Shown here one piece after another: positions 21,506-50,035 of a DNA stretch of 64,000 nt. The stretch comes from Centroscyllium fabricii (taxonomy: Eukaryota). The position numbers and the translations under genes were made by a program. The stretch is taken from contig JBNRSN020000008.1 of the NCBI GenBank assembly GCA_051313645.2, positions 115,258,001-115,322,000 on the forward strand. Direction: 5' to 3'. A model generated the notes under the pieces. It made no database searches, had not been told where the DNA came from, and saw nothing but the letters and a program-made list of their open reading frames with translations. Within the stretch, counting starts at the first letter, position 1; every line of letters begins with the position of its first letter.

Positions 21506-21560
21506 CATGGGAGAGGAACGGGGAGTGGAGGGAAGTGCAGAGGAAGGGGAATTCAGCAGT

Positions 21561-21866: not shown

Positions 21867-21954
21867 GATTGAGGCATGCAACAGTCAGCCATCACAAATA
21901 AACAAGTGGTTAAACTAACAGATAGAATTGAGAAGTTAGTTCTTTTTTCTTTAG

Positions 21955-23001: not shown

Positions 23002-23820
23002 GTAAGATTGTAACTGTTGTACATGCTGAAGAAATAGTTTGTATTTAAGTAAGTTGGTTAGGATTTTTGTGCTTTCTGTGGATGTAAACAAATGAAGGTA
23101 GACTGAAAGCACATAAAAAACTTAGTTTTATGTCCACAAATGTTACTTCCTATAACACTTTTTATGTCAACATTTCTAATAGAAATTTCCTATATAAATA
23201 TTTATAATGGGATACTTGTACGTAAGCATTTCTGTAAACATCTTATAATGGGAAAACTGAATGCCGCGTTTTTTGGGGATAAAAGAATCTGCCATTTATT
23301 TCCTCAGTAACCAGAATTCCGAAGTCCAAAATAAGATTTAAAATGAAATACAAATTACTTATTTCAAAATAATATGATCATATAAATTTGTTTTTGTGCC
23401 TTTTAATACCTTCATTAAAGTGTTTACTTGAAGGCCTCAGCCTCTCCTAAAGGCCTGGGCTTTGACTTGATAGTTTTGCCCAGAAAGCAGATCCTGCAGT
23501 ATGCACAATTTCTCTGGTTACATCAGTAGCATTTAAGCCAAATGATAAAATATTTATCTTTCATTCTCCAATAAAATTCAGTTGTTTTTTTCAGCATTAT
23601 TTGAAGAAAAGCTAGAGGACAAATTTCAAAAAGCATTATTCAGATAAACATTACACAGAGTATTTTTTAAATAGAGAGAAGGTTGCATGTGTTGGTGGGA
23701 GACAGAGGAAAAAAATGAAACTTTACTGATTACACATTTGTAGCTTTAAGTTATGTTCAAATTCTGAATACTCTATTCTAAATTCTTTATAAACTTCAGA
23801 GGTTGAGAGAGACAGATACG

Positions 23821-23999
23821 TAGATTTTGGTCTTCACTGCCTGGGTGGTAATCTGGCCAAGTGGATCGCATGCCCTTTAGAGAACATGTCTGATTTTACA
23901 TTCCATTAATTTCAATGGAATGATAATCAGGTGGGTTCTGTAAAGGGCATACAATCCATACCGTCAGGTTACTGCCCATTTGATGAAGATCAAAATCTA
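23821..23999. mobile_element. Palindromic MITE (about 180-bp hairpin)
   Basis: TAGATTTTGGTCTTCA / TGAAGATCAAAATCTA ends (15/16), centre cattccatt-aatttc-aatggaatg; related remnants near 22170 and 54775. Confidence 0.75.
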
Positions 24000-24992
24000 T
24001 CCTAGCACTGGGGGATAGTGCCACCAAAACATGGGATTGCCCCGAATGCCGCTAAACCTCACAATGTTACCCAGTACTGCTGAATAGTAGGAGGCCTAAA
24101 ATTCATGGGGCTAACGTCCTGCCATAACTGCCCAATAGGAACTTCTGCTGCTGACCCACCAGACTATGCAGGGTCAGGGGAGGATCCCCAAGTCAGATAG
24201 TCCCAGCTGGCACCCAGGAGTTCATCTTGGAAGTCTTCCTGAAAAAAGACAATGGACATTTGGCTCTGGCAAGCAGTCTACAGGGCCTGCCAGCATGCTT
24301 GGCCTGCAAGGAACCAAGGAGAGCTACAGTTGATCTGCTTTATAAAGGGACCAAAACAATTAAATATCAGTCAAAATCTTCAAAGGCTCAGACTAGATCC
24401 CATGCCTGGACCCCCAGGCTTTGCTTCTTCTCACCTGATGTTATGGCCTGATGGTGGATTCCTCAGCTGGGACCAAGTTCCTGCCACCCTGGCAGTTCCC
24501 TTCCTGTTACAGATACGCTTGTTTGGGGTGGACAGAGGTTCTATCCCAAATGAGACCCCTGGAAACTGACAGCAGAACCTTGGACTGAGTGTTTTTGGTC
24601 CCGGCCTATTTCTTTTGGACCTTCTGCTGCACTCCGAGTGCAGCAGAAGGCGCGTGAAAATTTGGGGCCCAGATATCTTAACTCCATCATGATGTGTATT
24701 CTTAACTTTAATTTTATCCCTCATCAGTTTTAAATAGGCAAGGTAAAGACTATTTACAGTTTTCATAAAATAATGGACAGTTGCAGATTTCAAAGCATCA
24801 GTAAAAATAGAACTTGACTTATTCAGTCACTGTAAATTGATGCTATTCACTACATAGCATAAGCACCTTTATTCTTGTAGAACAATATAGCCTTCAATTT
24901 ACCATGAACTGTGCCTTGACAGATCTGCTAGTAGTTATTATAAATCTGTGTTTGTAAAGTAGTTGTTAATGGTTCTGTGTATCCACCTTTAG

Positions 24993-25081
24993 ATATTGCT
25001 ATTGGAGCACCTTATGATGTAAATGGCAAAGTTTTCATATACCACGGGTCTGGTTCTGGAATAAATACAAAACCTGCTCAG
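24993..25081 (+). CDS. ITGA6: Integrin alpha-6 exon 8 equivalent
   Basis: cctttag| DIAIGAPYDVNGKVFIYHGSGSGINTKPAQ |gtaaga. Confidence 0.95.
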
Positions 25082-25928
25082 GTAAGAACTATCGCCAAAG
25101 TTGCACGTTTGTAGAGGTTTTGTAGTTTGTACATAAAGTATTGTTACCAATAGGAAAAACAGTTTGAAAAACCGTTTACTCAACTATACAACAAAATTGT
25201 GACAAACATACACTTTTAGTCGGTTGAATTTTTAACTTGGGTGTTAAACCTTTCACATGCTATTCCTAGCAATACAAAATACAAGATCACACAAAGTATT
25301 TTTCAACAGTGAAGCCATCAGCTAAGACCAGGCAGTTTGGCTACAAGAACTCCATAACGTGCAAGTTTCTACAACCAACATGACTAAAGTGTTAACCTTG
25401 AATTGACCAGAGTATCGTAAGCATCTTTGCTATTGTCAAAGATTGTCTATCTCTTTGATTATGGACGTGTAGCTGTTTAATCTATTGTAATTATAAGAGA
25501 TGAAACTGTTGGTCACCCTTTGTTTGTTTCAGTACAACTACAGAGGTGGTCCCATGTCATCTTTATACCAGCCTGGGATAGTGGATTTGTTTGACAGCTG
25601 TATTTGAGAGCTTTAAGAAGGGAACAGGCTCATTTATTGACTTTAGCCCTTTTTAACAGACCGCTCGGTGGTCAGAGGTCTCCTGTTACAGAATTATGTC
25701 GGGTGTCATGAGTCAGTCTACAGGGAATTTCAGTCTTGTAGTCAGCAGCCTAAGCACTGCCAGTGTTTTAAAATTTCAGCCCAACCAGCAGAAATAGTTG
25801 CACTAGATGTCAAATGGTGGCCTGTTCTACATGGTTAGAAGCGAGTCTGCATTTTGAGGTCAGTGAGATCATTTTGACCTTGTACGATAGTGTAAAACGG
25901 GTGATAGCACATTGGCAACCCAGTTTAA

Positions 25929-26247
25929 ACATAGAAACATAGAAGATAGGAGCAGGAGTAGGCCATTCAGCCCTTCGAGCCTGCTCCGCCATTCAATGAG
26001 ATCATGGCTGATCATCCAAACTCAGTACCCTGTCCCTGCCTTGTCCCCATATCCCTCGATCCCTATCGAGCCTGCACTGACACATATCCCACCCTATCCC
26101 CATAACCCCACATATTCAATCCCCCTAACACAAAGGGTCAATTTATCACGGCCAATCAACCTAACCCGCACATCTTTGGACTGTGGGAGGAAACCGGAGC
26201 ACCCGGAGGAAACCCACGCAGACACGGGGAGAATGTGTAAACTCCAC
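25929..26247 (-). mobile_element. HE1/V-SINE, 5'-truncated
   Basis: nearly identical to 10117-10420. Confidence 0.88.
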
Positions 26248-26779
26248 GTTTACATCTCTCCTCATTTTTATTTCCATTTTCTTCACTATATGAGTTACCC
26301 CCAATATTTGGAGAGAATATGAGTGACGGCTTTATTATTTTATGCATCGAGTAATGTACGTTGCCTTTGTATTTTTTACTGATCATCTGTATTGTGCAAA
26401 TAAGACCACTTTTTGGTTCAAAACCTGAGTCTCAGTCTGGGAAGAATATATATTGTCCACTTTTAAAGAGAGAGAATCATGTGGCTGCATGTGATACCTT
26501 CCAGTAAGCAGTGTGCAGATTAAGGATTCTGTTATGATCCCTGGGTCTCACGATTGTTTACCTAGATATTGATCAGCAAAAGTTATGCTCCAGTTCATAG
26601 GGGATACAAGGTTTGCTTACTGGAGTAACTAATGGTGTTGAACTCGAGGGAAAAAAAACTAGTGTAATTGCCCAGAAATGTGACAAATAGATACCAGATA
26701 TTGCAGCTGAATTATATTCTCATAAAACAGATTGAAAAGTTTGTTTTTGTCAAAAATCATAACTATACATCTCATACAA

Positions 26780-26912
26780 TAGCAAAACAACAGAAAATGC
26801 TGGAAACACTCAGCAGGCCAGGCAGCATCTGTAGAGAGCGAAACAGAGTTAACGTTTCAGGTCGATGACCCTTCATCAGAACTGGAACAAGTTGGAGATG
26901 GAACCGGTTTTA
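26780..26912 (-). mobile_element. Penelope tail fragment with hammerhead core (26847-26883)
   Basis: minus strand agtt CTGATGA a gggtc-atc-gacct GAAACGTT aact; flanked by repeated aactatacatctc (26761 and 26912). Confidence 0.8.
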
Positions 26913-27319
26913 ACTATACATCTCTTTAGTTTGCTGGTATTTTCGATTTTGACCTCAAAGACTATTTGGAAATGGCAGATGAGGAACATCAGTTGCTTTG
27001 TTATTTTCTGGATTGTCTAGATGGCCTTTGCAGCAAAAGAAACCCAGCAGAATGTTTGAATGAAGATCCTTTTTGTAATGTAAGGTTTACATGCTGCATT
27101 TGCTAACACATTTGGATTGTGATGATACTGTTATATCCAAGTGCTGTTCAGCTTTCGATGTCCAGCTCATGGCATTATCTGAGACTTGCCAGCTATTGCT
27201 GTTCTAGATATATAGTTTATTCCATTAGTTGACAATCTCAAAGTAAAATGTAATCAATCCTAATCATTTTTAAATCTCCTTTCCTTCCTTCCTTCTGTTC
27301 CTTTCCTCCTTCCTCCCAG

Positions 27320-27447
27320 GTTCTCGATGGGAAAAATTTACCTGTCACTCACTTTGGCTACTCTCTTGCGGGCAACCTGGATCTAGATGAAAACCACTAT
27401 CCTGACTTGGCTGTTGGATCACTTAGTGATGCAGTCTTTATGTACAG
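27320..27447 (+). CDS. ITGA6: Integrin alpha-6 exon 9 equivalent
   Basis: long pyrimidine tract then cag| VLDGKNLPVTHFGYSLAGNLDLDENHYPDLAVGSLSDAVFMYR |gtgaga. Confidence 0.95.
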
Positions 27448-28149
27448 GTGAGATATTTTGCAGTAGTTTTGTTAAGAGTATAATATCTGGATCACACAAC
27501 ACTTGCAATTCTAAAAAATATTGCTTTGAAAATCCTTGGGCTTCCGGCATACTGGGGCAGAAGTTGGGAACTAGATGGTCAACAGGGTGGAGATTCGGGC
27601 AAAACCCGGAAATGCTCCCATGCTCCAAACCCACCCTTTTTTTGATGGGAAAATTCCAGCCCAAATCTCTGCCCAGAAGATCCCCTGCTGGCAGTTGCAG
27701 ATGGGCCTGGAGCATGTAGAACTTCCGTCCAACCCAAATCAACTGATGACATCAAAGGCTTTCATTCTATTCATTTTCAGCTGGTGTGCAATGGCAATTG
27801 CCCTATCCTGCACATGAGTGCCAGATACCCAGAAAGCTGACATGATTCCTTAATTATACAACAATCGACCGTACCAGCCCTCATGACAGCCATACACCAG
27901 CATGGTTGATTGGTGATCAGTGGTATCCTATGCTGTCTTCTGCACTCCAGGAACACATGTGCCTCTTTAAACAGCTGCAATGTTTTACATGCTGTACCTC
28001 TGAATTTCCCTCTTTCCCAGTGGCAATAAACATATTAGGAGCAGTATTACTGCTCCAAACCTGCCCTGCATACATAATGAGGGCCGCAGTTGGAAATTGT
28101 ACTGCGTTAGCAGCAGAATCACATGGGTGGGAGTTAGTCCTGCTCCACA

Positions 28150-30045
28150 GCTAACATACCATTGGTAGGATAATTCAATCCTTGGGATCAACCTCATAGC
28201 TCTTCTCTGAACTTGCATGTCTCTCTCGTGTCTCAGTAACCAGAATTAGACACAGTACTCGATGTGCAGTCTGACCAAAGTATTATAAAGTTTGATCATG
28301 ACTTCATCTGGCTTTCATAGTCTATAGTTTTGGCTATGTAGTTCAATATTCCATTGGCCTTGTTGATTGCTGCTCTGCATTAGTTGGACATCTTGAGCAT
28401 TGGGACGACTAAGTTCTCTTTCAGTTCATCCTTAACTAATTCAACAGCATTCATGGAGTACATATTTCACTTATTTTTCCTTCCTATGTGCAGTATTTCA
28501 AAATTTCATCTGCTATTGGTCTGCTCACTTACATATTTTATCCTGCTCATTCTGTAACTTCTGGGCTGCCTCTTCCACTTCCAATGCTCCTCCGAATTTG
28601 GTATCATCTGCAAATCTGACTACTTTGCATTGAGTTTCTGAACCAAGGTCATTTATGTAAATTCGAAACAGTAGCACTCCACTCAGTTCTTCCCCCTTAC
28701 TCTGATATAATGGGCTGGATTTTCATTCAGGAGTCGGGTAGGAGGCGGGACTACAACTTTCGAGGTTGTAGTCCCACCTCCATCGAGATGTGGCCAATCC
28801 ACGCGATTTTAACTTGATTGACCTTGTTTGTTGGGCCCGCCCAGCAGGCTTAGCAGACCAATTAAGGGCCACCCAGCAACAGGTGACGTCACAGATTGAA
28901 ATTTCATCTGGCAAGAGGTTTTGACAGATGAAATATCAGTGTTTCACAGCTGTTTGAAGCTGTTAAACACTGACAGTCTTACTTCTAACCTGAGTCCTTC
29001 TCCACAGACTCAGTTAGAAATCTCTCCTGCACAGAAAGCTGAAGGCACAGTTCGCAGCCATTCTGCTTTCTGTGCTGGTGAGATGAAGGACTCCCGAGAC
29101 CTAAAGGAAGGAAGGCTGAAAAGGTCATTTAAACTTCTTTAGATACACCAAACACACTTACCTTTGCACTCATGCACACATCACTCACCTGAACACCGAC
29201 ATCTCGACCCCTCCAAGTCCTTCAACCCAACGGTTCGCCTCGCAAACCTGGCGTGGTTTGGAGCCGTCGGGAATCCCACACTTCAGCATGAAAAATAGGG
29301 ATTAGGCTAAAAACTATCTGTTAACAGGCAGTTAATTGGCACTAATCCCTTCCCGCCTCGGGTAGGCGGATCCAGTGCGGGGCGGGTACTCGCCTCTTTT
29401 GAAACTGGCATGGAGGCGGGTTTGGGTGCGGGATGGGGTCGGGACCCCTGATTTCAGGATTTTAACCCCCCCACACACCTCCAATCCCAACTCCACGGCC
29501 CAATGAAAATGCAGCCCAACATCTCTAACGAGTACTGCTTTAGTTTTAATTAATGGCCTTTCATGTGGAACTTTACTAAACACTTTTTGGAAATTGAGGA
29601 ACATCGTAGGACTTTCCACAGTCCACTTGGAATGTTACTTGTTCAAAGCAGCCACGGATGCTGGTCTGACAGAATCTTCCCCTTTTGAATCCACGTTGAC
29701 AGCTGGTTACTAGGTTATTATTGTACAGATAACCCTCAGGCTCATTCCTGACGATCAATTCATTATTTTACACAGAAGTGAAGTGAGCGTAATGGATCTG
29801 TAGTTGTCTGAGTCGATTTTGTCACACCTTTTCTGAATATTGGCACCATGTTAGCCTGTTTCCAATCTACTAGTATCCACAGTGTCTGTTGGCTCAATCA
29901 TAATGATCATCAGTGCCTCATAAATCTCCTCCCTAGTCTCTCTCAACACACTGGGATAAATACCATCTATCCCTGATTATTTATTTTTGAGCCCTTTTAG
30001 CCTTTATAGGAATTCTATCTCATTTATATAAAAGTTGTTGATTTT
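28150..30045 (-). mobile_element. Old CR1 LINE RT fragment, split by a MITE
   Basis: degenerate RT motifs (QRGFKRGRFCQT, FLNFQKVFSKVPH, ADD, QRRAMRLIP). Confidence 0.8.
28712..29517. mobile_element. Harbinger-type MITE
   Basis: TIRs GGGCTGGATTTTCATT / AATGAAAATGCAGCCC (15/16); flanks AAT/AAC. Confidence 0.8.
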
Positions 30046-30082
30046 ACTTAGGCATTTAATGTATTATTTTCTTCTTACTTAG

Positions 30083-30178
30083 GGCACGGCCTGTTATAGA
30101 AATCATAAAGAAAGTCACTACTTCACCCCCAAATATTGATATTAATGAAAAAAATTGCCCGAATCATAAAGGATTTTG
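30083..30178 (+). CDS. ITGA6: Integrin alpha-6 exon 10 equivalent (start of thigh domain)
   Basis: tacttag| (R)ARPVIEIIKKVTTSPPNIDINEKNCPNHKGF(C) |gtaagt; RPV motif after the propeller. Confidence 0.93.
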
Positions 30179-30240
30179 GTAAGTAATTAAAAACAACAAA
30201 AAGCATCTACCTATCTACATTTATTTAAGATCTCCCGTTG

Positions 30241-30405
30241 TGTGGTTCACTGTTGTATAATACACTGGTGTGGTTCGCTGTTGTATAATACACTGGTGTG
30301 GTTCGCTGTTGTATAATACACTGGTGTGGTTCGCTGTTGTCTAATACACTGGTGTGGTTCGCTGTTGTCTAATACACTGGTGTGGTTCGCTGTTGTATAA
30401 TACAC
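30241..30405. repeat. Minisatellite, 28-bp unit x about 5.9
   Basis: TGTGGTTCGCTGTTGTATAATACACTGG head-to-tail with no spacers. Confidence 0.95.
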
Positions 30406-32154
30406 GAGCTGAGAAGCAGCTGCTGGTGATGGGTGCAGGTCGGGTGTGGGAGAGGGAGGGTTCTGGCCAAAGCTGCAGACTGGCACTTCACAGATGGCTT
30501 TCAGGCTGCAGGTGGTGTCTGGCAGATGCAGCACGTATGAAATTTCTGTTTAATATCAAATACACCCCCGCACACTTCTTTTCTTGCCTTTACCAATATG
30601 GCGGCCAGCTAATTTCCGACGAGGAATGTGCACACGCTTGCCACCCGCCATATTGGATGCTTTGATGCCCAGTTTACACCTGTAAAATGGGCGTGGCATC
30701 AACCAATTTTTAGCATGTTCCCAAAGTGATGGCTGAAGCGGCTTGATACCAGGCAAGTTATATACTTTGAAGTTTGAACTGAGACAAAGAAAGATCAAAA
30801 CGCTGCTTCCACACTTGCCAATCACAAATAGGTTTCAAAGACACACACACTGCAAGACAAGATATCAACCATGTAAATCACAATCCTTCAGGTATAGCTA
30901 GACTGTGAAAGTCTTCCTTCCAGGGCCCCTTGATAGTATATTTGCAAATGTTATGGACAGGAATGTATGACCTGGTGACCAATATTTACTGTTTCTAACA
31001 TTTGAGTGAACCTTGCATTAAGGGATCCATTAGAGGTGATTCTGAAGTTAAACAGGCATGTGAGACAGATAATATTTCATATATAGGCAGGTTGCTTCCC
31101 TGTAATCAAATTAAAGTGACGACAAACTGGACAACTAGCAAAATCTTCTAAGGAAATATTTTAAAATATATTTGAAAGAAGACGGATCTTCCATCCATCA
31201 CAACCTACTCCATCTCAGGTTTTTTTAAATAGTTTTTTTCAACATATTTGATCTTTGGTAACTAAAGAGAGATTAGCCCTTACCTTCTGCAGTCCCCTTC
31301 CCTAAACTCAAGTACACACATGAGTTTCCGTTGTAGGCTCTTCATGACTTGATTGTTGTTTTCACCTGTCAAATCAAGGAGGACCCACAGCAGAAACGCA
31401 CATGCTAACAAGTCTCTCATACCCAGGTACTCGAAAGATTGTGAATACTAAATGAAGAAAAACAAATAAAAGTCAGGCTGGAAACTGGCAGACAGCGAGT
31501 AATGGTAGGGAGACTGGCTAGCAATAGTTGTAGAGTTGGGGCTGGATTGAGCAGAGAGGCTGGATTGCGATCCAGTTTGGTCGGCCAGAGAGACTGGAAC
31601 AGACATAGAAGCTCAGCAAATCAAGACCTGGAGATGCAGCCATGCTTCAAAGTGAGATGCAAGCCGGGCAGAGCAGATTGTGTGGATTGGTGACTGGGCA
31701 ACTGGAAGAGAACAGTTAAACTTGGGGGAAACTGCTAAAAATAATTACATTATTAAAAAACTTTAAATGGCTGTTTTATATGCTCTTCTGAGGATCTGAA
31801 TGCTCTCTGATGTTGTGTGGTTAGCATGAAGTAATCAGGAAAGCTGGATGTTCATGGCTAACTGCAGTATTACTATGTTACGGCCACTCACACAAAGCTT
31901 TTATGGATAGATTCATATTTGGCAAATGGGTAGAAATTGAATATTTGTTCTACCAATCTAAATAATAGTCTAAACGAGGCACTTCTTTCATCCCATCTAT
32001 TCCCCATTTGCCAAATATGAAGTTAGATCTATACTGTGTCTCCAGAATCTAGATTGTTTTCTAATCTGTTGTTTTTAACCCCCCGTTCCAGTAGTAATTT
32101 ACTGCATTATTTTCAGGTTTCTTTGTTTCCAATACAATATGTTTTTCTTTGCAG

Positions 32155-32216
32155 TGTGACTGTTAGGGCATGCTTTCAGTACACAGCTCACCCCAGTGGT
32201 TTCAATCCCAGGATAA
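32155..32216 (+). CDS. ITGA6: Integrin alpha-6 exon 11 equivalent
   Basis: tttgcag| (C)VTVRACFQYTAHPSGFNPRI |gtaagt. Confidence 0.93.
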
Positions 32217-32301
32217 GTAAGTGAAAGAGAAATCTCCCACACCTTTATTGTATTTTTATTTTTAGCTCTTGAGTTATTAATATGATTATTTCCCTATTTA
32301 G

Positions 32302-32468
32302 CTGTAGGCTACCTGCTTGAAGCTGACACTGAAAGAAAAAAGATGGGTCTGCAATCAAGAGTGTCATTTATTAATCAAAACCGTGATCATGGTTACCAGC
32401 TCTCTGGCAAAATTGTATTGGATATGCAAAACAAAGAGACGTGTATCATCGAAATACTGCAGCTTCAT
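32302..32468 (+). CDS. ITGA6: Integrin alpha-6 exon 12 equivalent
   Basis: tatttag| TVGYLLEADTERKKMGLQSRVSFINQ...KETCIIEILQLH |gtgaga; 85-nt upstream intron. Confidence 0.92.
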
Positions 32469-33189
32469 GTGAGAATTTTTTAACATTAAACATTTAGTCA
32501 GTCTATCTTAGTCAGTCTTTTTATATTAGTGGCTGGGCTATACCCATATTAAAATAATCTTTACATACACCTTAAAGATGTTAAACCATCCTAGAAATGA
32601 AGTGCAGCACATTAAGTTTTTCAGCCAGTACATTTGTTAGATCTTCAGTTAATAAATGAAGGACTACAAATACCGGAGGCTGTATGATGCATTGAACAAA
32701 TGCACTGCCTTTTCATTTCTGTGACCCAGTTTTCAGCTATAAAGGATCTATTTGAATTGAATTTCAATAGCGTTAACTCAGTCTTGAATGCATCTGCGTC
32801 TATTGATCCAAACTACTCAAATGGGCAGTCTGACTTTGAGGATGGCTGGTATAGGAAATTCAGAAAACCCACACTGGTGCAATAGTGGGTCCTCTTCTGA
32901 GGTTCAGCGATGGTGTCGGGGAAAACAGAGAGCATTACTCCCTCTCTGGCCGATACTATACTTGATCTGTGTGTATTTGATGCGGGAGGACCTTGATTTA
33001 TCACGGCTCTGCTGGCAATGTGGATCCTCGCTGGTGGTGGGCATCGGTCATACAGCTGGAATTTGTGACTTCGTCCACTTGATTCACATGAGCCTAATAT
33101 TCACATACAGTTTTGAAATAAACCGAGGATGTGCTACAGCGATGCAGGAACCTCAATATGAAATTTTTAGGGAAATGAGATCCCAAACT

Positions 33190-33953
33190 TAGCCGGAAGG
33201 GCGGGAACCTGGCGGGGATTGGTCTGGGCGGCTTCCTGTCCCGCCCACCCAAACAGCTGGGAAGGCCACGCAATTTTAATTTAAAAGTTGTTAAATCCAC
33301 GCCGGCGGCAGCGGGTGGTAATTAACTCAATCGAGTCGGGCTGCAGCGGGGCTGCGAGGAGTTTGATTGACAGTTCCAGCACTGGTTGTTGACCGTTCCC
33401 ACGGAAACACTCCACTGTGACCTCACAGTCGAGTGAAACCAATGGGCAAGGTCAAGTGCTGGTGACTGACAGGTGGGCTGGGGGGACTCAGAATCCTTGA
33501 CAGCTCGCACTGGCTGTGAGCAAATGTGCAGAGCTGAGATTTCTCCGTTTCTGCTCACAGCTGGTGCAGATAGCACGGAGTAACTTACTCCTCTAAGGTG
33601 CTGGAGGCACGCCAAGCATTTGGCAGCATGTCCTTCACACCTTGAAGGAGAAAGTAATAACCAGCGCTGTGCTCCCGCTGGGTTTCACCCAGCGGGGTTT
33701 AAAGTGACGGGGTTAGGGCGGGAAACAGCTCAAAATGGCTGAGGGCCCTTAAAATGGCATTAAAGATGCCAATTAAGGGCCCTTAACGAGGTTGCAACCC
33801 ATCCCCGCCGGCCGGCGGTGGGAAGGTTTCGGGGCGGGGGAAAATGATAAAGCGGCGGGGATACGGCGGGGGGGGTCGCAACCCACTGGTTCCGCTATTT
33901 TGCCGGCCGAGCCACCGAAAACCCTGCCTCACGGGGACATGAAAATCCCCCCC
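33190..33953 (-). mobile_element. Non-autonomous Harbinger derivative
   Basis: 33660-33953 is the reverse complement homolog of 60969-61255 (gggggg-attttcatgtcccc, gttaagggcccttaattggcatc). Confidence 0.82.
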
Positions 33954-34069
33954 TATATTTCCCATCTTTGAGCGAGACTCCATCGCTGCACGCAGCTGAC
34001 CTTTATAAAACTGGCCCATAACCAGGAAACTGGCTTTGCAGTGCCTTTTAAAGAAAGTTTCTGTTTCTT

Positions 34070-34790
34070 AAAAATTTGTTTACGGGATGTGGGTGACATT
34101 TATTGCCCATCCCTAGTTGCCCCAATGACGTGGTGTTGAGACTTAGCCTTGAACCGCTGCAGTCCTCATGCTGCTGTCACAGTGGTATTGGGAAGAGGAT
34201 TCCAGAATATTGACCCAGCGACGATGAACAGACGGTGATGCAATTCCAAGTCAGAATGCGCCTGACTTGGAGGTGATGTTCCCACAATATTCTGTCCTAG
34301 TCCTTCTCAATGGTAGAGGTTGTGTGGAGGAAAGTGCTGTCCTAGTAACCTTGGTGAGTTGTTGCAGTGCATTTTGTAGATAGTATATACTGCATCTATA
34401 GTGATGGAGTGTGTTGATGCTGAGTCCAGTAGCATGGGGCTGTTTAAGCGACGTTCGCTGTCCTGAATGGTGACGAGCTTCGGGTGTTATTTTGGTTTCA
34501 CCCATCCAGTGAGTGGTAATATTCCATCACACACCAGCTTAAGTGTTGTAGATGGTGGAGAGGCTTTGAGGAGTCAGGAGATGAGCTACCTGTCAGAGTA
34601 CCCAGCCTCTGCCCTTCTCTTCATAGCCACAGTTTTGATATGGCTTGTCCATTTAAGCTTCTGGACAGTGATTCCGCCCCCCCCCCCCACCGGTGGAGAT
34701 GGTGGGGGACTTAGCGATGGTGGTACTTTTGTACATTGTTAGAAGATGAGGTGTGAATGTTACCTGCCAAGCCTGAATATTGTACAAGTC
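34070..34790 (-). mobile_element. Old 3' fragment of the LINE family at 58340-60955
   Basis: colinear degenerate match to 58350-59150. Confidence 0.7.
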
Positions 34791-34907
34791 TGTCTTTCAG
34801 GTCCCTCCCAGAACTACAGATACTGTCCAGAAAAGGAGAAATAAAATAACTCTTTATTTAGAGCTGTTAATGGTAGATATGTGCTCCAAGCCCTATGCTT
34901 CTGCTGG

Positions 34908-35482
34908 GTGATCGGGGAGACCAGAACTAGGGGGCATAGTCTTAGAATAAGGGGGGGCTCTTTTAAAACTGAGATGAGGAGAAACTTCTTCACTCAGAGG
35001 GTGGTTAATCTATGGAATTTGCTGCCTCAGGGAGCTGTGGAAGCGGGAACATTAAATAAATTTAAAACGGAAATAGACTTTTTTAGCAGACAAGGGAATT
35101 AGGGGTTACGGGGAGCGGGCAGGGAAGTGGACCTGAGCTATTGTTAGTATAGTAAGACCTGAGTGATCTCCTCGCCTAGATTGGGGTCGGAGAGGAATTC
35201 CCCAGATTTTTTACCCAAATTGGACCTGGGTTTTTATCCGGTTTTTCGCCTCTCCCAGGAGATCACATGGTTATTTTGGGTGGGATGAAGGGTGATAGTG
35301 GGAAGAAGGTTAGGGTAGGATCAGCCATGATCTTATTGGGTGGCGGAGCGGGCTCGAGGGGCCGATTGGCCTACTCCTGCTCCTATTTCTTATGTTCTTA
35401 TGTTCAGCCATGAACGCATTGAATAGGTGCAGGCTCGAAGGACTGAATGGTCTACTCCTGCACCTATTTTCTATGTTTCTAT
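34908..35482 (+). mobile_element. CR1 3' end with composite tail
   Basis: GETRTRGHSLRIRGGSFKTEMRRNFFTQRVVNLWNLLP, then hairpin tail and (ctatgttt) repeats. Confidence 0.88.
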
Positions 35483-35602
35483 AACATGTGTTTGTACCAG
35501 TCCTTAACCTAAGAGTGTGTTGAAATACCCCGAGTGGGAGGAGCAACTATGATGACCGGTTGCTGTTCAGTGTGTGACCTATTGGCATGGTTGTGACTTA
35601 GA

Positions 35603-36432
35603 GGGGTCAATTTTCCTCAAGGTGTGGGGAATTGGTGAGTTCCCCGTTGATCACTTTTTCTTCCTGCTTTCTGAAGGGTGTGGGAGCCCCACGCAATTTT
35701 GGCTCAATTGGCCAGTTAAATCCCCGCGTGTGGGAAGCCCCTGCCAATTGATTGATTTAAGATAAAAGGCCGGCAGGGTTTCCACTGTGTAACCACCATG
35801 ATTGACAGCTCGAACTAGTCTGGTCTGTTTCTTTCTGTTGTTTCAGTGGATTGCGATGTCACAATCCACTGTCAACAGAATCTAAACGCAAGTCGATGAT
35901 TGACAGCTTTAAGTGGTTTGTTTCACTGGCAGGCTCCTGACAGCAAGGGAACGCCTATCTGTCAATCACTAGAAAGCAGCTGGAAGGTAAGTTTTTGAAA
36001 GGTTTTTCCCACTAATCTTGGGCACCCTAGGTAGACAATTAGACCTCCAGCATGCTGGAGGCCAGGACGCCATTCTGCTACAGGTGCTTCAATGCCTTGA
36101 AGGTGAAAGTCAGCAAACCGAATGTGTCCCCGCTGGATTTCACCGGCGGGGTTTCCAGCTGGTGGGTTTTGCGTGGGAAAAGGCTGAAAATTGCAAGGAG
36201 CCCTTAAAATGGCATTATACATGCCAATTAAGGGTCCCTAATGAGCCTAACGACCATCCCTGCCAATGCCGGGCGAGACTGAAGTGGGCTGATCGGACCC
36301 GCCGGGCTGAAACTGACAAGCTGGCGGGAAACCGGCGGGAGGGGTCACGACCCCCCGTTTTTGCGATTTCTTTTTTTTTCCCCTCCCCGGCCGCCGAAAA
36401 AGCCGCCTGTCGGCTCCAGGAAAATTGATCCC
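35603..36432. mobile_element. Harbinger-type MITE with 3-bp TSD
   Basis: AGA|GGGGTCAATTTTCCT ... AGGAAAATTGATCCC|AGA (14/15 TIR); shares the cccttaaaatggcatt...gccaattaaggg motif with the Harbinger end. Confidence 0.85.
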
Positions 36433-36544
36433 AGAATCTCTGAATCAGGAATGATGCAACAGTTGGAGCCATGTCTGACAACATTGTGGCTGCCAGTGCT
36501 TGCTCACTCTTCGGCAGTTGCTCAATCCTCTGAAGACCTTGGCT

Positions 36545-36922
36545 GGACGACACGGTGGCGCAGTGGTTAGCACTGCTGCCTCGCAATAAGGAAATCCTGG
36601 GTTCGAATCCTGCATGGCCCGGGACCTCTCTGCACGGAGTTTGCATGTTCTCCCTGTGTTTGTGTGGGTTTCCTCCGGGTACTCCGATTTCCTCCCACCA
36701 CCCAAAGACATGCAGGTTCGGTGAATTGGGCAAATTTTTTTAGTATCTCCATGAGTATGTGTGTGAGATACGGTTCTTGGAGTTGGGGGTGTCAGGGAAT
36801 GTGGGGAGAGGGTAGAAGGGGGGTGCTGGGGTTGGGTGATCAGCCATTATCTCATCAAAAATGGCGGAGCAGGCACGAAGGGCCGAATGGCCTACTCCTG
36901 CTCCTACCTTCTGTGTTTCTGT
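36545..36922 (+). mobile_element. V-SINE, full length
   Basis: tggcgcagtgg (A box), ggttcgaatcc (B box), V-domain, CR1 tail. Confidence 0.88.
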
Positions 36923-37417
36923 GGACCGTGGACTCCTTGAGAGAATGCTGCCTTATTGGACCTTTCAGTGCTGGGTAACTACAGCCAGATGACCTGCATT
37001 AAAACAATTATTCTTCTCCTGCCACCTCTACTTACTTCTCCTCATTGAGCAACAGTCATTCATTTGATGCTCCTTTCTTACTTCTAGTATTTGTGCTGTT
37101 GAGGCATAAGTCTCTAGAGTCTACATTTTAGCCATTTGATGTTCCTTCCCTTTATACAACCCTGTGGAGGAGTTTTGAATTGTCAGTCACATAGTGGCAG
37201 GTAATGGTCTTTGCACCAGTCTTCAAAATATAATATATAAACTGTCTGCAGGTTGATTGGCAGATTGTGTTGTATATCATAACCAGCTAACTGTTTCCAG
37301 TCAATCTGTGTACCTTATCAGTGCTGGACTGTGAAATTCATTCTGTTCTATATATTTCTAGAAAGGTGGCGATAAGGATCCAAATCCAAATTAATCCATT
37401 TTATTTTGTATTTTCAG

Positions 37418-37558
37418 GACAGTATCAAAGATAAGCTGCGCCCTATTGACGTATCAGTTGGAGTAGAGATCAAACAGTCTAGGCGCAAGAAAAGGCAGCA
37501 TCCTAAGTTAATCGACTTGCTTCCTGTCCTCAGTGAGAGTGAGCCTCAGCGCACAGAG
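37418..37558 (+). CDS. ITGA6: Integrin alpha-6 exon 13 equivalent
   Basis: ttttcag| DSIKDKLRPIDVSVGVEIKQSRRKKRQHPKLIDLLPVLSESEPQRTE |gttagg. Confidence 0.93.
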
Positions 37559-38059
37559 GTTAGGGTTCGATTTGTTGTTTATCTCCTTTATAAAGCAGAA
37601 GGGTTTGTGGTTTCCTTCAATGTATTCGTTCTGCATTGTGAACTCGAACCACAATTCAGTCTTATTTTGCCTGTGTAACCAGCACTCTTAAAGAGTAGAA
37701 GAAGCAACCAAAGGTGAACCGTTACATATTCTTAACAAAAAATATATCTTACAAAGCATTAACGGTATATTCCTCAATTGATTTTTTTTCCTAATAGGAT
37801 GTGTGTAGCAAATCAAATTTACATACACAAATTAGGTAGGTGTGATACTCCCCATTTGAACTGCAAATGCCAGTTACACAGGCAAAATACTTTGGTGTTC
37901 CCGTATGTTTATTTTGTCTTGGCTGCAAGAAATGTTCACATTTGAACCCCAGTATAGTCAGCTTCCCAATCAACCATGGACAACACTGTCTCTGGTTGCT
38001 CACCATGTAGCTTCATTAGGCTTGTTTCATGCAAATGTTACTGGTTAATACTGTCACAG

Positions 38060-38272
38060 ATTGTCCTGGCCAATATCTATCCCTCAATTAACATCACAAA
38101 AGCAGATTATCTGGTCATTATCACATTGCTGTTTGTGGGAGCTTGCTGTGTGCAAAGTGGCTGCTGCGTTTCCTACATTACAACAGTGACTACACCTCAA
38201 AAGTACTTCATTGGCTGTAAAGCGCTTGGGACGTCGTGAAAGGTGTTATATAAATGCAAGTCTTTTTTTTTT
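38060..38272 (+). mobile_element. DeuSINE (SacSINE1-like) 3' half ending just before the exon 14 acceptor
   Basis: ttgctgtttgtgggagcttgctgtgtgcaaagtggctgctgcgtttcctacattacaacagtgactacac...tatataaatgcaag. Confidence 0.85.
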
Positions 38273-38292
38273 TAATTAATATTTTGATACAG

Positions 38293-38411
38293 GTCCAATT
38301 TTTGAAGGAAGGTTGTGGGAATGACCACATTTGCCAGAGTAACCTTGAATTAAAATATCAATTTGGCTCCAGGGTTCAAAATCAGCAGGACAAGTTTGTT
38401 CCTTTACCTGT
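38293..38411 (+). CDS. ITGA6: Integrin alpha-6 exon 14 equivalent (genu)
   Basis: gatacag| VQFLKEGCGNDHICQSNLELKYQFGSRVQNQQDKFVPLP |gtaagt; CGxDxxC genu motif. Confidence 0.95.
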
Positions 38412-38739
38412 GTAAGTCTTTTTTATTTGACCTATTGGCATGGCACCGTAGACCTATTTGGTTAGATCTATAATGATGTAGTTATAGAATAGGAACCCTT
38501 TCTCTTTCAGCACGTGTGAACTCAGCAATAGTTCAAATATGGTAGTCCAATTAAGTAAATTGAAGTTCATTTAAAAAAAAAAAAAAAATGTTTACAAGAA
38601 GTAATAAAAATAAGTCACGCCCAACATAAGCAACCCAGAAAAGCGTTCCCTTGGACATGCATAACTGAGAAGCTTTTGCTTTGTTCATTGATTCAAGTTA
38701 TCAATTCAGTAAATTATTTGTGCTGTTCTGTTTCTTTAG

Positions 38740-38929
38740 GGAGAATAGATTTCCAGTATTTAAATTAAGTGACCAGAAGGACATAGTACTGGAAATAACT
38801 GTTACTAACAAGCCGTCAGACCAAAATAGGCCAGAAGAAAATGGGGATGATGCACATGAAGCTCACCTGATTGCAACATTTCCAGACACTTTAACCTACT
38901 CTGCGTATCGAGTCCTGACACTAAATCAG
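38740..38929 (+). CDS. ITGA6: Integrin alpha-6 exon 15 equivalent (calf-1)
   Basis: tctttag| ENRFPVFKLSDQKDIVLEITVTN...GDDAHEAHLIATFPDTLTYSAYRVLTLNQ |gtaagt. Confidence 0.95.
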
Positions 38930-39483
38930 GTAAGTGCTTCATTTTTTTTTCCCCGATCACTTTTTTTCATTCTGTCCTAAAGGTGCTGACTCTTGCTGAT
39001 GTATGGTTGCGTGGATACCAGCAGTCCCACATTACCTCGTTCAAGTTGGCAAATGTGAGCTAGACAGCAAGTGTACATAGGTGATTCAACTTCGCATCGT
39101 AGGAGTCCAGTATTGTCCTTACCTAATAACCACATGGATGCAATTCTGAGCAAGGGATGCTGGATAGCAATCAGAGTGGGAATCATGACTTATTCCCTCC
39201 TCCCCACACCCCCCCCCCCAGCTGCCCCAAAAATAACCCAGCAAATTGTAATGCTCCAAGTGAAAGCAGCTCGCTCACCACAGACTTGGAATTAGACTTA
39301 GGACATTCTAGTCTATACCAATTAGTGCTACGCAGAGCAGTACTTTTAACCAGTAACCATTAAGGGAGCTGACTTGCTTAATTTTATTTGATGTCTGTTT
39401 TAGTTAGCCATTTCTTTTGATTGATTACTTACTGTAACATACACAGACATTTTACCCTGATCTATGTTCTCTCTTTAAATCAG

Positions 39484-39564
39484 GACAAAACTTTGTGTAC
39501 AGCAAATCAGAATGGGTCGCAAGTAGACTGTGAACTGGGAAATCCCTTAAAGAGAGGATCAGAG
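39484..39564 (+). CDS. ITGA6: Integrin alpha-6 exon 16 equivalent
   Basis: aatcag| DKTLCTANQNGSQVDCELGNPLKRGSE |gtaagc; CELGNP motif. Confidence 0.95.
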
Positions 39565-39742
39565 GTAAGCTAGTCTCTACTTCAACTTTTTATTCTAATG
39601 TATATTTCACTTGTTTATGCTTCTCCGTGTGAAATCTAACAATTAATATTTGCCTCTTTCCTGAATTGAGCAAATATAATTTGTACATGGCTCTGATTTG
39701 TGCTAAATCTAAATCGAATACAATTACTATTTTGGTTTCTAG

Positions 39743-39822
39743 GTTACTTTCCACTTGATCATGAGTACTGCTGGAATTACACTGGACACCAGAAACCTTA
39801 GTATCAATCTACAGCTGGAAAC
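39743..39822 (+). CDS. ITGA6: Integrin alpha-6 exon 17 equivalent
   Basis: tttctag| VTFHLIMSTAGITLDTRNLSINLQLET |gtaagc. Confidence 0.93.
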
Positions 39823-40404
39823 GTAAGCCAACTTAACATTTCTACTTTATTTATATAAATATAGATTAAAATTGCATCTACTGAAGATGCAATAAGATCA
39901 GAACTTTTATTTCCTGAGATTTACCAAAACATCATTCCATATTCTGAGCGTTTGTATCTAGAAATAGAAAGCATTTTATCCACAAGTTAACCTGTTAATA
40001 AATTAGTAAAATAGACAGTGCCACTGTCACTGAAGTGGTAGCTGTTACTTGCATTACATTTAGTTTAAAGGAGAACCAACGTTAATACCCTGTCTTGCTC
40101 ATTACTCCATGCCCTTACCTGATGGCCATATATGTACTTTCAGTCGTGATTGCTGGATAGTGATCAGGAGTGGGAATTATGGCTGATCTCTTTTTTTTTG
40201 TGCCCCAGCAGCAGTTACAAAGATCAAATGCCATGGCCAGTTAGTTCTAGCTAACATTAATTAACTCAAAACTGAACTTGTGATCCTCCTGGTCTGTCTG
40301 GCATAGCTACTTACTGCCTCGACCAGCTGAGCTATCAGGGAGCCAACATTAATATTTTGGTTAATCTGTTATTTTGTGATTGAGGCTTTAATTTTCATTT
40401 ACAG

Positions 40405-40479
40405 GACCAGTAAACAGGTTAATCGGCCATCTATCGCTACTGCTCAAGTGGTGATTGAACTGCTTTTGTCTATAGTTGG
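40405..40479 (+). CDS. ITGA6: Integrin alpha-6 exon 18 equivalent
   Basis: tttacag| TSKQVNRPSIATAQVVIELLLSIVG |gtaagt. Confidence 0.93.
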
Positions 40480-40539
40480 GTAAGTAAGATTTCCTACTTA
40501 CTGTCCTTTTGATGTGGATATATTCTCAATATTGTATTT

Positions 40540-41067
40540 GTGTGTGGTGGCTAGAAGGAAAGATGGCGGCGCGCATAGACGCAGCGGCTTTGCGTCTCCC
40601 GAGGTAATGCTGTCCGCTGGTAGTTCTGGGTCTGTTCGCTCGGAGGGGACGGCATGGTCGGCGCAACGGAGTTGTCGGAGCACCGGGATGTCTGCGATCG
40701 GAGCATCGGGCCAGCATGGTCGGAGCGCCGAGGCCTTGAGGTCGGAGTGTTCGGAGCCGGAGCCTGCGTGGCCACCGAGGTCGGCGTGCCGGGACCTGCG
40801 TGGTAGGAGCGGCGGGGCCTTGGTCACTGAGATCGGCGCGCTGGGGTTTGTGTGGTCGGCGTAGTCGTAGCGCTGGAGGTCGGCGAGTTCGGAGCGCCGG
40901 GGCCTGCGTGGTCGGAGCACCAGGCCCGTCATGGATTAGAACAGACTGGGACTTCAGCAGAGGACATTTTAATATCTGCATTGTTTCCTGGGAGTTTGCA
41001 AGAATGCATTTCGTTGTATTGTGTTTGTTCACTCTGCAATGACAATAAATTTAATTGATTGAATTGA
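40540..41067 (+). mobile_element. CpG-rich non-autonomous retroelement with Rex1 tail
   Basis: starts near AAGATGGCGGC, internal ggtcggagc subrepeats, ends ctctgcaatgacaataaa...ttgaattga like the Rex1 copy at 3404. Confidence 0.75.
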
Positions 41068-41108
41068 TAAAAATGAAAACCTAAGTAATGGTCATTCTGT
41101 TTGAACAG

Positions 41109-41211
41109 TGCTGCAAAACCATCTCAAATATATTTTGGTGGTTCAGAAGTAGGTGAGAGTGCTATGAAGACTGAAGAGGATGTGGGAAGTTTGATTGAGT
41201 ATGAGTTCAGG
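41109..41211 (+). CDS. ITGA6: Integrin alpha-6 exon 19 equivalent (calf-2)
   Basis: gaacag| AAKPSQIYFGGSEVGESAMKTEEDVGSLIEYEFR |gtaagt. Confidence 0.95.
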
Positions 41212-41426
41212 GTAAGTGTGGCAACATATTTTATTTAAAAAAAATACAATTGAAGTTGGCTTTCTATTAAGCAATTCCAAATAATGTGTAAAGTGCTGTT
41301 ATTTTAAAACATTGTCTAGATTAATATAATTCTGTTCATAGTGCAGAGATTGACTACAATTGATTAAGTTAACAACAAGAGGGCGTTATATTGATTTATA
41401 CTTTGGAATGTTTTGTTTCCACACAG

Positions 41427-41600
41427 GTGATTAATTTGGGCAGATCACTTAAAACTCTGGGCACTGCTTGGCTGCAAATCATGTGGCCAAAGGAAATAGC
41501 CAATGGGAAATGGCTGCTCTACTTGATGAAAATTGACTCAAAAGGCATCGATCATGTATCCTGCCAGCCTGATGGTGCAATTAACATCCTAAAATTACAG
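41427..41600 (+). CDS. ITGA6: Integrin alpha-6 exon 20 equivalent
   Basis: cacacag| VINLGRSLKTLGTAWLQIMWPKEIANGKWLLYLMKI...INILKLQ |gtagtt. Confidence 0.95.
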
Positions 41601-41702
41601 GTAGTTAATAATTAAGTATTTACTAAAAGCTGAGATTCACTTAACAGGTTACTGGATCTTGTGCACATTTGCAGGAAGCCTCCAACCCGAATTTCTGGGC
41701 CA

Positions 41703-42046
41703 ATAAGAACATAAGAAATAGGAGCAGGAGTAGGCCCAATCGGCCCCTCGAGCCTGCTCCGCCATTCAACAAGACCATGGCTGATCTGATCCTAACCTCA
41801 ATTTTATTTTTACTCTCCACCCCGCCCAGACCCATGTGATCACCTGGGAGAGGCGAAAAAACAGATAAAAAACCCAGTAGCCAATTTGGGAGAAAAAATC
41901 AGGAAAATTCCTCTCTGACCCATCTAGGCGATCGAAACCTGGTCCAGGAGATCACATGGCCGATCTGAACCTAGCCTCACGTCCACTTACCTGCCCGCTC
42001 ACCATAACCCCTAATTCCCTTTAATTCCAGGAAACTGTCTATCTCA
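41703..42046 (-). mobile_element. CR1 3' tail fragment
   Basis: near-identical to 59873-60205. Confidence 0.82.
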
Positions 42047-42676
42047 GTTATGGTTATGTGTTTGACATACAAACACCTAAAATGTGTATTTGGTTATTTT
42101 TAAGTAAGTAACCTGATTGAGAGAGAGTATACTTTTTACAGCAGCCAGCATTTAATGCTTCCTTGTTTAAAAATTATTTCAAGTAAATATATATTGTGCT
42201 ACTTTATTTTGTACTTTTTTAAAGCCACATCTTAAGAGAACGGGGAAAAAATGAGTGTTTTGACATATTGGCTGTGAAATATGTGTATTTCGTTCCCTTC
42301 ACCCAACACAAACCATTTATTTGGACATCTTTGAGGCCAGTGGCCTTCCAGTGCCTCTCTCAAGTAGCCATTCTTTCTCAGGCCCATACGTGCATGTTGA
42401 TCCCCTGATCGTGATCAGGGTCTAGAACCCAGAAAGTATTTTTTTTCCCCCATTCCCTAGCCAGGGAGTAAGTGAAGTCCGTTATTGCACCCCAACTGCT
42501 GCACTGGCTGCAATCAGTTAACTCGGCACACATTGAGAATCAAAGCCTCTACCTTCTTGGTCTATTCAGTTCATAGTTATAAGTTTCTATTGACATTCTT
42601 TTCCGTATTTACAGACATAACCTGTGGAGCATTTTGTGACCTTCGTATAATCTACATGTAATTTATTTTATTTCAG

Positions 42677-42787
42677 GGAGTTTCTAGTCAAACAAGAAAA
42701 AGAAGGGAGCTTGAGGGCAATGAACCCAACAAGAATCCAGGAGTTATTTCCTCTTTCTTCTCCGATAAAAGAAAATATACAACTCTG
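42677..42787 (+). CDS. ITGA6: Integrin alpha-6 exon 21 equivalent, heavy/light chain furin site
   Basis: tttcag| GVSSQTRKRRELEGNEPNKNPGVISSFFSDKRKYTTL |gtaggt; RKRR at 42695-42706. Confidence 0.93.
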
Positions 42788-42871
42788 GTAGGTGCAGTTG
42801 TTGTTTCACGACCTGAACTTGGACTAATTCCTTTTGTTTCAAAACTGACCATTTACTTTCACATTCTGCAG

Positions 42872-42988
42872 GAGTGTGGCCAGCACAAAAATACTAGATG
42901 TGTTAATATAAAGTGTCCCCTTCAAGGGCTTGATAGCAATGCATTCCTGGTTTTGCGTTCACGGCTATGGAACACCACTTTCCTAGAG
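42872..42988 (+). CDS. ITGA6: Integrin alpha-6 exon 22 equivalent
   Basis: tctgcag| ECGQHKNTRCVNIKCPLQGLDSNAFLVLRSRLWNTTFLE |gtaagt. Confidence 0.95.
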
Positions 42989-43095
42989 GTAAGTATGACT
43001 CTGAATTGTGTGCGCTAATCTTTTGTAAATGTGAGCTGTTAAAATTGATTTTTAATGTAATCTTGTTTTTGAATATACCTTGTATTGTCTTTCAG

Positions 43096-43194
43096 GAATT
43101 TTCCAAACTGAACTACCTTGATATTATTGTTAAAGCCATGATAACTGTTGAATCTGAGGCCGGAAACATAGTGATTAAAAATGCTGAAACTGAG
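43096..43194 (+). CDS. ITGA6: Integrin alpha-6 exon 23 equivalent
   Basis: ctttcag| EFSKLNYLDIIVKAMITVESEAGNIVIKNAETE |gtaatt. Confidence 0.94.
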
Positions 43195-46266: not shown

Positions 46267-46392
46267 GTGCGAGTCACAGTGTTCCCTGAAAAAACTGTGA
46301 GTCATTATTTTGGAGTTCCTTGGTGGATCATTTTTGTTGCTATCCTGGCTGGAATTTTGATGTTGGCACTTTTAGTATTTTTATTATGGAAG
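46267..46392 (+). CDS. ITGA6: Integrin alpha-6 exon 24 equivalent (transmembrane helix)
   Basis: ccttcag| VRVTVFPEKTVSHYFGVPWWIIFVAILAGILMLALLVFLLWK |gtgagt. Confidence 0.97.
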
Positions 46393-48049: not shown

Positions 48050-48160
48050 TGTGGTTTCTTCGGGAAAAGCAGAAAAGATTCCCACTATGACGCCAGGTAT
48101 CACAAGGCTGAGATCCATGTTCAGCCGTCTGACAAAGAAAGACTTACTACTGATGCATAA
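48050..48160 (+). CDS. ITGA6: Alternative cassette exon encoding the alpha6A cytoplasmic tail (exon probably ends at 48187)
   Basis: ccttgtag| CGFFGKSRKDSHYDARYHKAEIHVQPSDKERLTTDA* ; YHKAEIHxQPSDKERLTxDA is the alpha6A signature; candidate donor ttg|gtaaat at 48187/48188; too short for the ORF track. Confidence 0.95.
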   Translation, partial: CGFFGKSRKDSHYDARYHKAEIHVQPSDKERLTTDA

Positions 48161-49870
48161 TGTTGACTCACGTCACTCATTGATTTGGTAAATAGTCCGT
48201 CCGTTGGTCTCCGATTCTTGGCTTGGAGAGGCATGGTGTGTGGAGCTTGGCATCATTTTAATCCTTTTACTCAAAGGGAGACACAATCTCATAGGTTGAC
48301 ACCATTAACACCGAACCAAATCCCCTTTTTGATCATTTAGTCATTTTATTATCTTGGATGGGGGGAGAAACAATACAAATACCAATTGTTCTGATGTTAA
48401 AAGAAAATGAGAAAACAATTTTGAATAGATGAGTTAGCACCACTTACCCTATTCAAAGTTGTACAAGTATTCGGTTAGTTTAGGGTCTGATTTCAATGTG
48501 CAATTATTAACACTACATGAATTTATAATGTCATTCTTCACTAAGCAGAATAGGAAAAAAAAAAATAGCACCTCTATGTTACACACTAGATATTGTAACA
48601 CAAATCTGCCATTACATTAATTGGAACTTTTGGTTCTCTTACAACTTCACTGCAGCCTTTTAATGGTCTTCTTTGCATGGAAACTTCTTGCGTGGGAAAT
48701 GGCGCTTACTCTTTAGGCTACTGGAAATGGGAACTTTTATTCTTCAGTACTTTTGCAGGTTCCAGCTTTCGGAATTGATATCTGAGCTTCACTCTGCTGC
48801 TGTTTGAAAGGCTCTGTATAGAATTGATAGATTTGCTGCATGTCTACATTGTACTTTTTGTAGTGGCCATTATTGAACCACCTTTTAGGCCTTGAATTAT
48901 TGTTTGATATCTGTTTACTAAATGACATTACTGGTGAGATATTTATAGTCTGTATTTCTTTTCTTTTGTGAGCCAAAATATAGTATTTTAAAAGTGAAGC
49001 CAATTTTCTGGAGTCAATACTGCAGCAAAACCTTTCCAGTTTGGGAAAGAGTAACCCTGCAGGATGATCTGTTGCAAACATAGTATTTGATGGAGTTAGA
49101 TTTATCTAACTGAGGAACAGTTAATCCCTTAAATTTCATAACTATACTGCTGCATAAAATCTAGTTTAGTATAAATTCGATAGTTGGTTTTTTTCACCTG
49201 TGAACGAGAAATTTCTGCTAAAAACAAATCAGTTAAGCAGTACCCGACCGATTAACAGACTGACCTGAGGCAGAATTTTCGACAGTGCTTTTAGAGGAGA
49301 TTAACGGTGATCTTTTTGTCATGTTAAAGCCTCTATATGAAAACTATCAAGTTTAGGTGTTTCTGGCCAATTTTCTTCCCTCTCTCCCGAGTCTTGAAGG
49401 GCTATGGGTTAATGGGTAGTGTTGGCCTTCCACTAACTCATCCAAGTCAGCATTGATTGTTTGTTTTATGAGCCACCACAATGTGTTGGCAGACTATTTG
49501 ACCAATGAGGTCTTGTAGCTGAATCCGATGTTGTCTTCACCCAGTGTCCACAGATGTGCACTTCTAGCAGAAGTCACTGATCAGTGAACAATAACCTGAC
49601 TTTTTTAATTGCTTTATCCTGGGGGGTGATAACCCTCTAATGGCCTGTGGTTTAACTTAAAAAATAAATTGCTGGTAATAATAACTTGAGCTATTCTATT
49701 CCATTATTCCTCAGCAGGATGGTAAGTGACTTTAGCACAAAATGTTTCATTTCTGTGTGGTATGCTTCTCAATTAGAAAATGTCTATGGAGGATTGGAGT
49801 GTTTCCTTTCTGAGGGTACAGTATTACACAACTGATCTTTATAATGATCCCATTTTCCCCCTGTTTACAG

Positions 49871-50035
49871 TGTGGATTTTTTAAACGTTCCCGTTATGAT
49901 GACAGTGTTCCACGGTACCATGCAGTTCGAATCCGGAAAGAAGAGCGACAATCCTTTGAGGATGGAAAATTGAACAAGAAACAAGACAAGAAACAATGGA
50001 TGACAACATGGCAGGAAAATGAGAGTTACTCCTAA
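49871..50035 (+). CDS. ITGA6: Terminal exon encoding the alpha6B cytoplasmic tail
   Basis: tttacag| CGFFKRSRYDDSVPRYHAVRIRKEERQ...KKQWMTTWQENESYS*. Confidence 0.97.
   Translation, partial: CGFFKRSRYDDSVPRYHAVRIRKEERQSFEDGKLNKKQDKKQWMTTWQENESYS

Follow-up and report, generated by a model that had tools for sequence, protein, structure and literature searches.

Does a glycine in the hinge motif of one of two alternative integrin alpha6 tails loosen the clasp at the inner membrane, or is it a substitution with which the clasp still works? The question arises from a 64,000-nucleotide stretch of the Centroscyllium fabricii genome (hereafter the window), for which the original prediction was that exon A of the alpha6 gene replaces the integrin GFFKR hinge with GFFGK while exon B keeps GFFKR, such that the A/B splice switch may also toggle the clasp. 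We find that the GFFGK hinge is real, that sharks and rays share it as a recurrent variant, and that it is not a new system.

An intact ITGA6 gene and its two tail exons

Using a splice-site model guided by tblastn, we found that 23 exons at 9990-48160 form a single open frame of 976 residues on the forward strand, with GT-AG present at 22/22 introns; the model begins without the first ~102 residues of ITGA6, whose 5' end was not located in the window. The best protein matches carry the name integrin alpha-6 and, together with the tree placement given below, identify the gene as the ITGA6 orthologue; identity to sawshark alpha6 (P0001) is 91.9% over 940 aligned residues. The ectodomain is encoded by 21 exons (9990..43194, +), followed by a transmembrane exon (46267..46392, +) that ends in LWK with a phase-0 donor common to both tails, so both tails are in frame. 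Alternative exon A (48050..48187, +; 138 nt) is preceded by an AG acceptor, is followed by a GT donor at 48188, and encodes the 36-residue alpha6A tail (48050-48157), closed by a TAA stop at 48158-48160, while the coding part of exon B (49871..50035, +, with its stop ending at 50035) encodes an alpha6B tail of 54 residues. This order of transmembrane exon, exon A and exon B, with a stop inside exon A, is the alpha6A/alpha6B exon layout, and the window gene is an intact, ordinary shark ITGA6.

Re-reading 48050-48157 bore out the motif on which the original prediction turned. Exon A opens with TGT GGT TTC TTC GGG AAA AGC AGA, giving a tail that begins CGFFGKSRK and holds three basic residues in its first nine. 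The claims that exon A is intact and that the two exons contrast also held, in that the A tail is open and has both splice sites, whereas the B tail opens with CGFFKRSR at 49871 and thus carries the canonical GFFKR. Within the A motif, GGG (48062..48064, +) places Gly at position 4, and AAA (48065..48067, +) places Lys at position 5, the clasp position, which is Arg in human. We rejected the idea that the genome holds another alpha6 copy whose A tail is canonical, as a tail search of the same genome gave two matches among the best-scoring candidates, the window itself and an alpha3A-like tail exon with canonical GFFKR (L002:1495-1605, -). Elsewhere in the window, two neighbouring ORFs at 61407-62741, which carry an acidic repeat towards the end, show a motif pattern that we take to be that of a Harbinger/HARBI1-type transposase.

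In five Logan proteins (1074-1097 residues, encoded on 3.9-5.1 kb contigs), the ectodomain is continuous with a GFFGK tail, and the two of them that were put in a tree group with little skate. Since the gene spans >38 kb here, these proteins are most simply read as spliced skate-type mRNAs. Just 3' of the exon A donor lies a UGG-rich stretch (48188..48262, +), with 6 TGG in the 100 nt that follow the donor, a count of at least 6 being reached in 3/32 other 100-nt intron bins; one GCATG lies inside it. A UGG-rich stretch after the human exon A donor is described as a point of ESRP1 control (PMC5930856), and by analogy the shark stretch may be a weak candidate ESRP site, not clearly above background. 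RBFOX-type GCATG near exon A occurred at chance level, with 7 matches in L001 where 5.1 were expected.

The glycine codon among relatives and its history

We compared 47950-48300 with 4 of 21 listed runs, using Logan contigs rather than raw reads, so rare alleles would escape notice. The contigs of X1 and X3, two samples of organism A from one study, from which this assembly may have been made, equal the window with zero differences. Those of X5 and X6, from one study of the close relatives B and C, have A at 48062, giving AGG and Arg; no other difference is listed for them within the coding part of the exon, which has no gap. GFFGK is therefore one A>G transition from GFFRK. With G carried by both X1 and X3, an assembly error is ruled out as far as contigs show. 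It had also been proposed that the Gly might be an insertion, the tail having 36 residues compared to 35 in human. We rule this out, since 36-residue A tails occur in all 13 named sharks and in the chimaera, 12/13 of these sharks have Arg at the Gly site, and relatives B and C differ from the window by one base; the extra residue relative to human is not the Gly. That the Gly is an insertion or an assembly error, or that exon A is a dead exon, is thus hardly credible: the length difference from human and the possible origin of the confirming contigs in the assembly's own samples speak for it, while the shared length, the gap-free difference of one base, the identity of the entire tail with a horn shark RefSeq model from a separate lineage and the five Logan proteins all speak against it.

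The hinge was compared across 280 proteins, drawn from the best 120 of 260 and the best 120 of 249 search matches plus cluster look-ups. Chondrichthyan counts take one A tail per named species (n = 21) and leave out duplicate same-species models as well as six Logan proteins, among them five whose A tail reads GFFGK. On this basis, the A tails read GFFRK in 12 species, GFFGK in 8 (horn shark and all 7 batoids, the skates and rays) and GFFRR in the chimaera, with GFFKR in none, while the B tails read GFFKR in 20/21, the exception being GFFKH in whale shark (P0262). The G-F-F is unchanged in 21/21 A tails and in the window, position 4 is Arg in 13 and Gly in 8, and position 5 is Lys in 20, with Arg in the remaining one. 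The bony-vertebrate figures count records rather than species, with 12 unclassifiable records dropped, the newt GFFKT tail among them; the 154 A-type records comprise 147 GFFKR, 4 GFFRR, 2 GFFRK (coelacanth, P0122) and 1 GFFGR (lungfish, P0124). Since 147/154 keep GFFKR, position 4 is not free outside chondrichthyans. The uniqueness first supposed for GFFGK was lost in this survey, as 8/21 named cartilaginous fishes carry the motif, though 0/154 bony-vertebrate A-type records do, and the motif itself is known already from the RefSeq models of eight species. Among the papers listed in a full-text literature search that covered few subscription journals, none was by title on GFFGK, GFFRK or GFFGR in integrins, none treated shark integrin alpha6 cytoplasmic tails and none had a recurring A-versus-B hinge asymmetry. 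A search for shorter relatives gave 3 matches from 4 candidates, none from sharks.

Other departures were seen near or in the hinge. The leopard gecko alpha6B hinge is GFFQR (P0289). The residue before GFF (48050-48052 in the window) is Cys here and in the horn shark and chimaera A tails, Phe or Leu in 19/21 named chondrichthyan A tails and Cys in 21/21 B tails. We take this Cys to be a palmitoylation site in alpha6, and it may be missing from most A tails of sharks and rays, where Phe or Leu stands in its place.

Trees were built from alpha6 rows only, with tails removed (34 rows and 14 rows; quick trees with SH-aLRT supports). The window grouped with sawshark and sevengill shark, that is, with squalomorph sharks (SH-aLRT 99 and 97), and its position among the shark alpha6 rows agrees with the species tree. 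A single clade of the 6 GFFGK rows was rejected (p-AU 2e-12), as was a grouping of the window with horn shark (p-AU 6e-48). That the window is horn shark, despite the same A tail, is excluded by the tree, by identity outside the tail (82.6%, compared to 91.9% with sawshark) and by the differing B tail. We ran parsimony on a hand-entered version of the tree, in which organisms B and C were entered by assumption as sisters of the window. Arg was favoured as the ancestral state at position 4 for cartilaginous fishes (3 steps vs 4) and for sharks (2 steps vs 3), and Arg and Gly tied for the ancestor of sharks plus rays. Together, tree placement and parsimony at position 4 indicate that Gly arose at least two times within sharks. 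The Gly of batoids and that of lungfish (GFFGR) likely mark further separate origins.

Where the change falls in the membrane clasp

The original prediction held that the clasp residue is lost. In alphaIIb-beta3, the motif is described as a reverse turn in which the two Phe fill a gap against the beta helix and alphaIIb Arg995 pairs with beta3 Asp723 (PMC3771934), and labelling of alphaIIb GFFKR is reported to place G, F, F and R in the membrane and to leave K994 exposed (PMC8569584). Mapped on alphaIIb, the shark Gly takes the place of the residue that is exposed there, and the only change at the clasp position is the conservative one from Arg to Lys. Gly occupies the fourth position, which is Lys in human, while the fifth, salt-bridge residue is Lys here and in 20/20 named elasmobranch A tails; the clasp-breaking idea rests on the wrong motif position. 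The A tail departs from the exact GFFKR sequence that the B tail retains, but it has two Phe after the transmembrane helix and a basic position 5, and this genome has a beta1-like exon that keeps the beta Asp (L003, HDRREF). The hallmark of a broken clasp, loss of the position-5 charge or of a Phe, is absent from the window and from 21/21 chondrichthyan A tails. A PDB sequence search gave 9 matches, comprising transmembrane-tail structures of alphaIIb, alpha1, alphaV and alpha5 and no alpha6 chain.

A natural loss at position 5 does exist, in newt alpha6A (GFFKT) and in whale shark alpha6B (GFFKH). The alpha6A tail of the newt Pleurodeles waltl reads CGFFKTTKK in two independent models (P0282 and P0052), with GFFKR in the B tail. 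As the clasp Arg is Thr in these models, the newt tail fits the clasp-breaking idea better than the shark tail does and is probably the better natural test of a clasp-free alpha6A.

Mice with beta1 D759A are reported to be normal, with undisturbed skin and with integrin that is no more active (PMC2064342). The alpha6A and alpha6B tails are described as having the same regulation of binding, with A-null mice developing normally and with the replacement of alpha6A by alpha6B affecting nothing beyond the migration of lymphocytes and the number of T cells in lymph nodes (PMC2132821). On the strength of these mouse results, the mapping of the Gly to position 4 and the kept Asp, we read the Arg-to-Gly change at position 4 of the shark GFFRK motif as a tolerated substitution with the membrane clasp still working, at a probability of about 0.65. 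Since rays, skates and horn shark share GFFGK and the position-5 charge is kept, the variant is likely tolerated rather than a pre-activating splice switch, and relaxed constraint on a solvent-facing A-tail residue, with the clasp intact, is the likely explanation.

By analogy with alphaIIb-beta3, the two Phe would lie in the membrane packed against the beta helix, residue five would reach the beta Asp and residue four would face the cytosol, such that Lys at position 5 should still pair with the Asp. Position 4 would have become Arg first, through an AGR codon (AGG in organisms B and C), and one A>G transition would then have turned Arg into Gly. The recurrence of Gly in A tails would be explained by this distance of one transition; the exon B Lys (AAA here) would need two base changes to become Gly. 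On this view splicing would act as it does in mammals, with the A/B switch altering the distal part of the tail while the resting state stays the same.

A looser shark A clasp, a milder version of the original prediction, is unlikely by comparison. Lys would weaken the salt bridge and Gly would loosen the turn, alpha6A-beta1 would activate more easily than alpha6B-beta1 and splicing would tune the resting state. This would suit the hinge survey, in which A tails differ from GFFKR in 21/21 named chondrichthyans and B tails keep it in 20/21; on the sequences compared, this asymmetry is consistent and counts against tolerance, as does the retention of GFFKR in 147/154 bony-vertebrate A-type records. 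In addition, 7/7 batoids keep Gly, with no other residue, and selection could likewise account for the pattern. Arg is the salt-bridge residue, and in alpha4 GFFKA knock-in mice deactivation is described as impaired (review PMC4495637), which suggests that the fifth residue is important in some beta1 integrins. Cysteine changes in alphaIIb GFFKR are likewise reported to activate alphaIIb-beta3, in a text that gives no separate K994C value (PMC8569584), and an Arg-to-Lys test at the clasp position (R995K) was not found in the literature searched. On the other hand, the position-5 charge is retained in 21/21, both Phe are invariant and removal of the beta1 Asp leaves mouse beta1 integrins unactivated. 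De Melker is said to have found in 1997 that changes of G, K or R in human alpha6A spared beta1 pairing and surface expression, which also speaks against a looser clasp. The A hinge variants may nonetheless differ in activation.

It is rather improbable that, with the clasp unchanged, loss of the exposed basic side chain makes a cytosolic regulator such as SHARPIN or MDGI bind the membrane-proximal tail less well and has repeatedly been favoured in A tails. K994 is described as the one exposed motif residue (PMC8569584), most alpha-tail binders are reported to use the membrane-proximal motif region (PMC5864728), and SHARPIN is described as binding there without using Arg (review PMC4495637), so the exposed residue could matter for regulators; Gly also stands on separate branches. 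However, AGR is one transition away from Gly, hence selection is not required for Gly to recur. Moreover, Arg is retained in the close relatives B and C, and nearby basic residues remain. A broader proposal, tentative and somewhat doubtful, is that sharks and rays have since their origin combined a non-canonical alpha6A hinge (GFFRK, repeatedly GFFGK) with a canonical alpha6B. Splice choice would then set clasp tightness or inhibitor binding as an isoform-specific activation switch, and Gly would have been selected independently in batoids, horn sharks, the window lineage and lungfish.

As a tolerated variant, the shark hinge would imply that the 'invariant' GFFKR is really GFF-x-basic in alpha6A. 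The natural allelic series of KR, RR, RK, GK, GR and KT (newt) offers a way to probe the importance of the alpha-beta1 salt bridge, on which mouse beta1 D759A and alpha4 GFFKA disagree. If the A tail were easier to activate, alternative splicing would be tuning the integrin clasp itself.

Comparison with known integrin tails

The window shares with the vertebrate ITGA6 A/B tails the order of transmembrane exon, A and B, the stop inside exon A and the conserved distal tails. It differs in its A motif (GFFGK instead of GFFKR) and in having an A tail one residue longer; exon A is 138 nt compared to 130 nt in human (PMC5930856), and identity to human alpha6 (P0082) is 60.3% over 925 residues. Heterodontus francisci alpha6A (XP_067891516.1) has GFFGK and the same tail as the window at 36/36 residues, and skate and ray RefSeq alpha6A models (e.g. 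XP_055493950.1 and XP_059822636.1) share the motif.

Position 4 also varies in other alpha tail exons of the same genome, with GFFDR in L014 and GFFRR in L016 (about 1500-1560), which we take to be alpha8-like and alpha9-like, respectively. The human alpha8 hinge is GFFDR and the human alpha9 hinge is GFFRR. In these tails, as in the window, position 4 varies while GFF and a basic fifth residue are kept, but the alpha8 and alpha9 variants are whole-gene differences, whereas in the window only one of the two alternative exons carries the change. The clasp mutants alphaIIb R995A/D, alpha4 GFFKA and beta1 D759A concern the same motif and the same question of the resting state; these remove or reverse the charge, whereas the shark Arg-to-Lys change keeps it.
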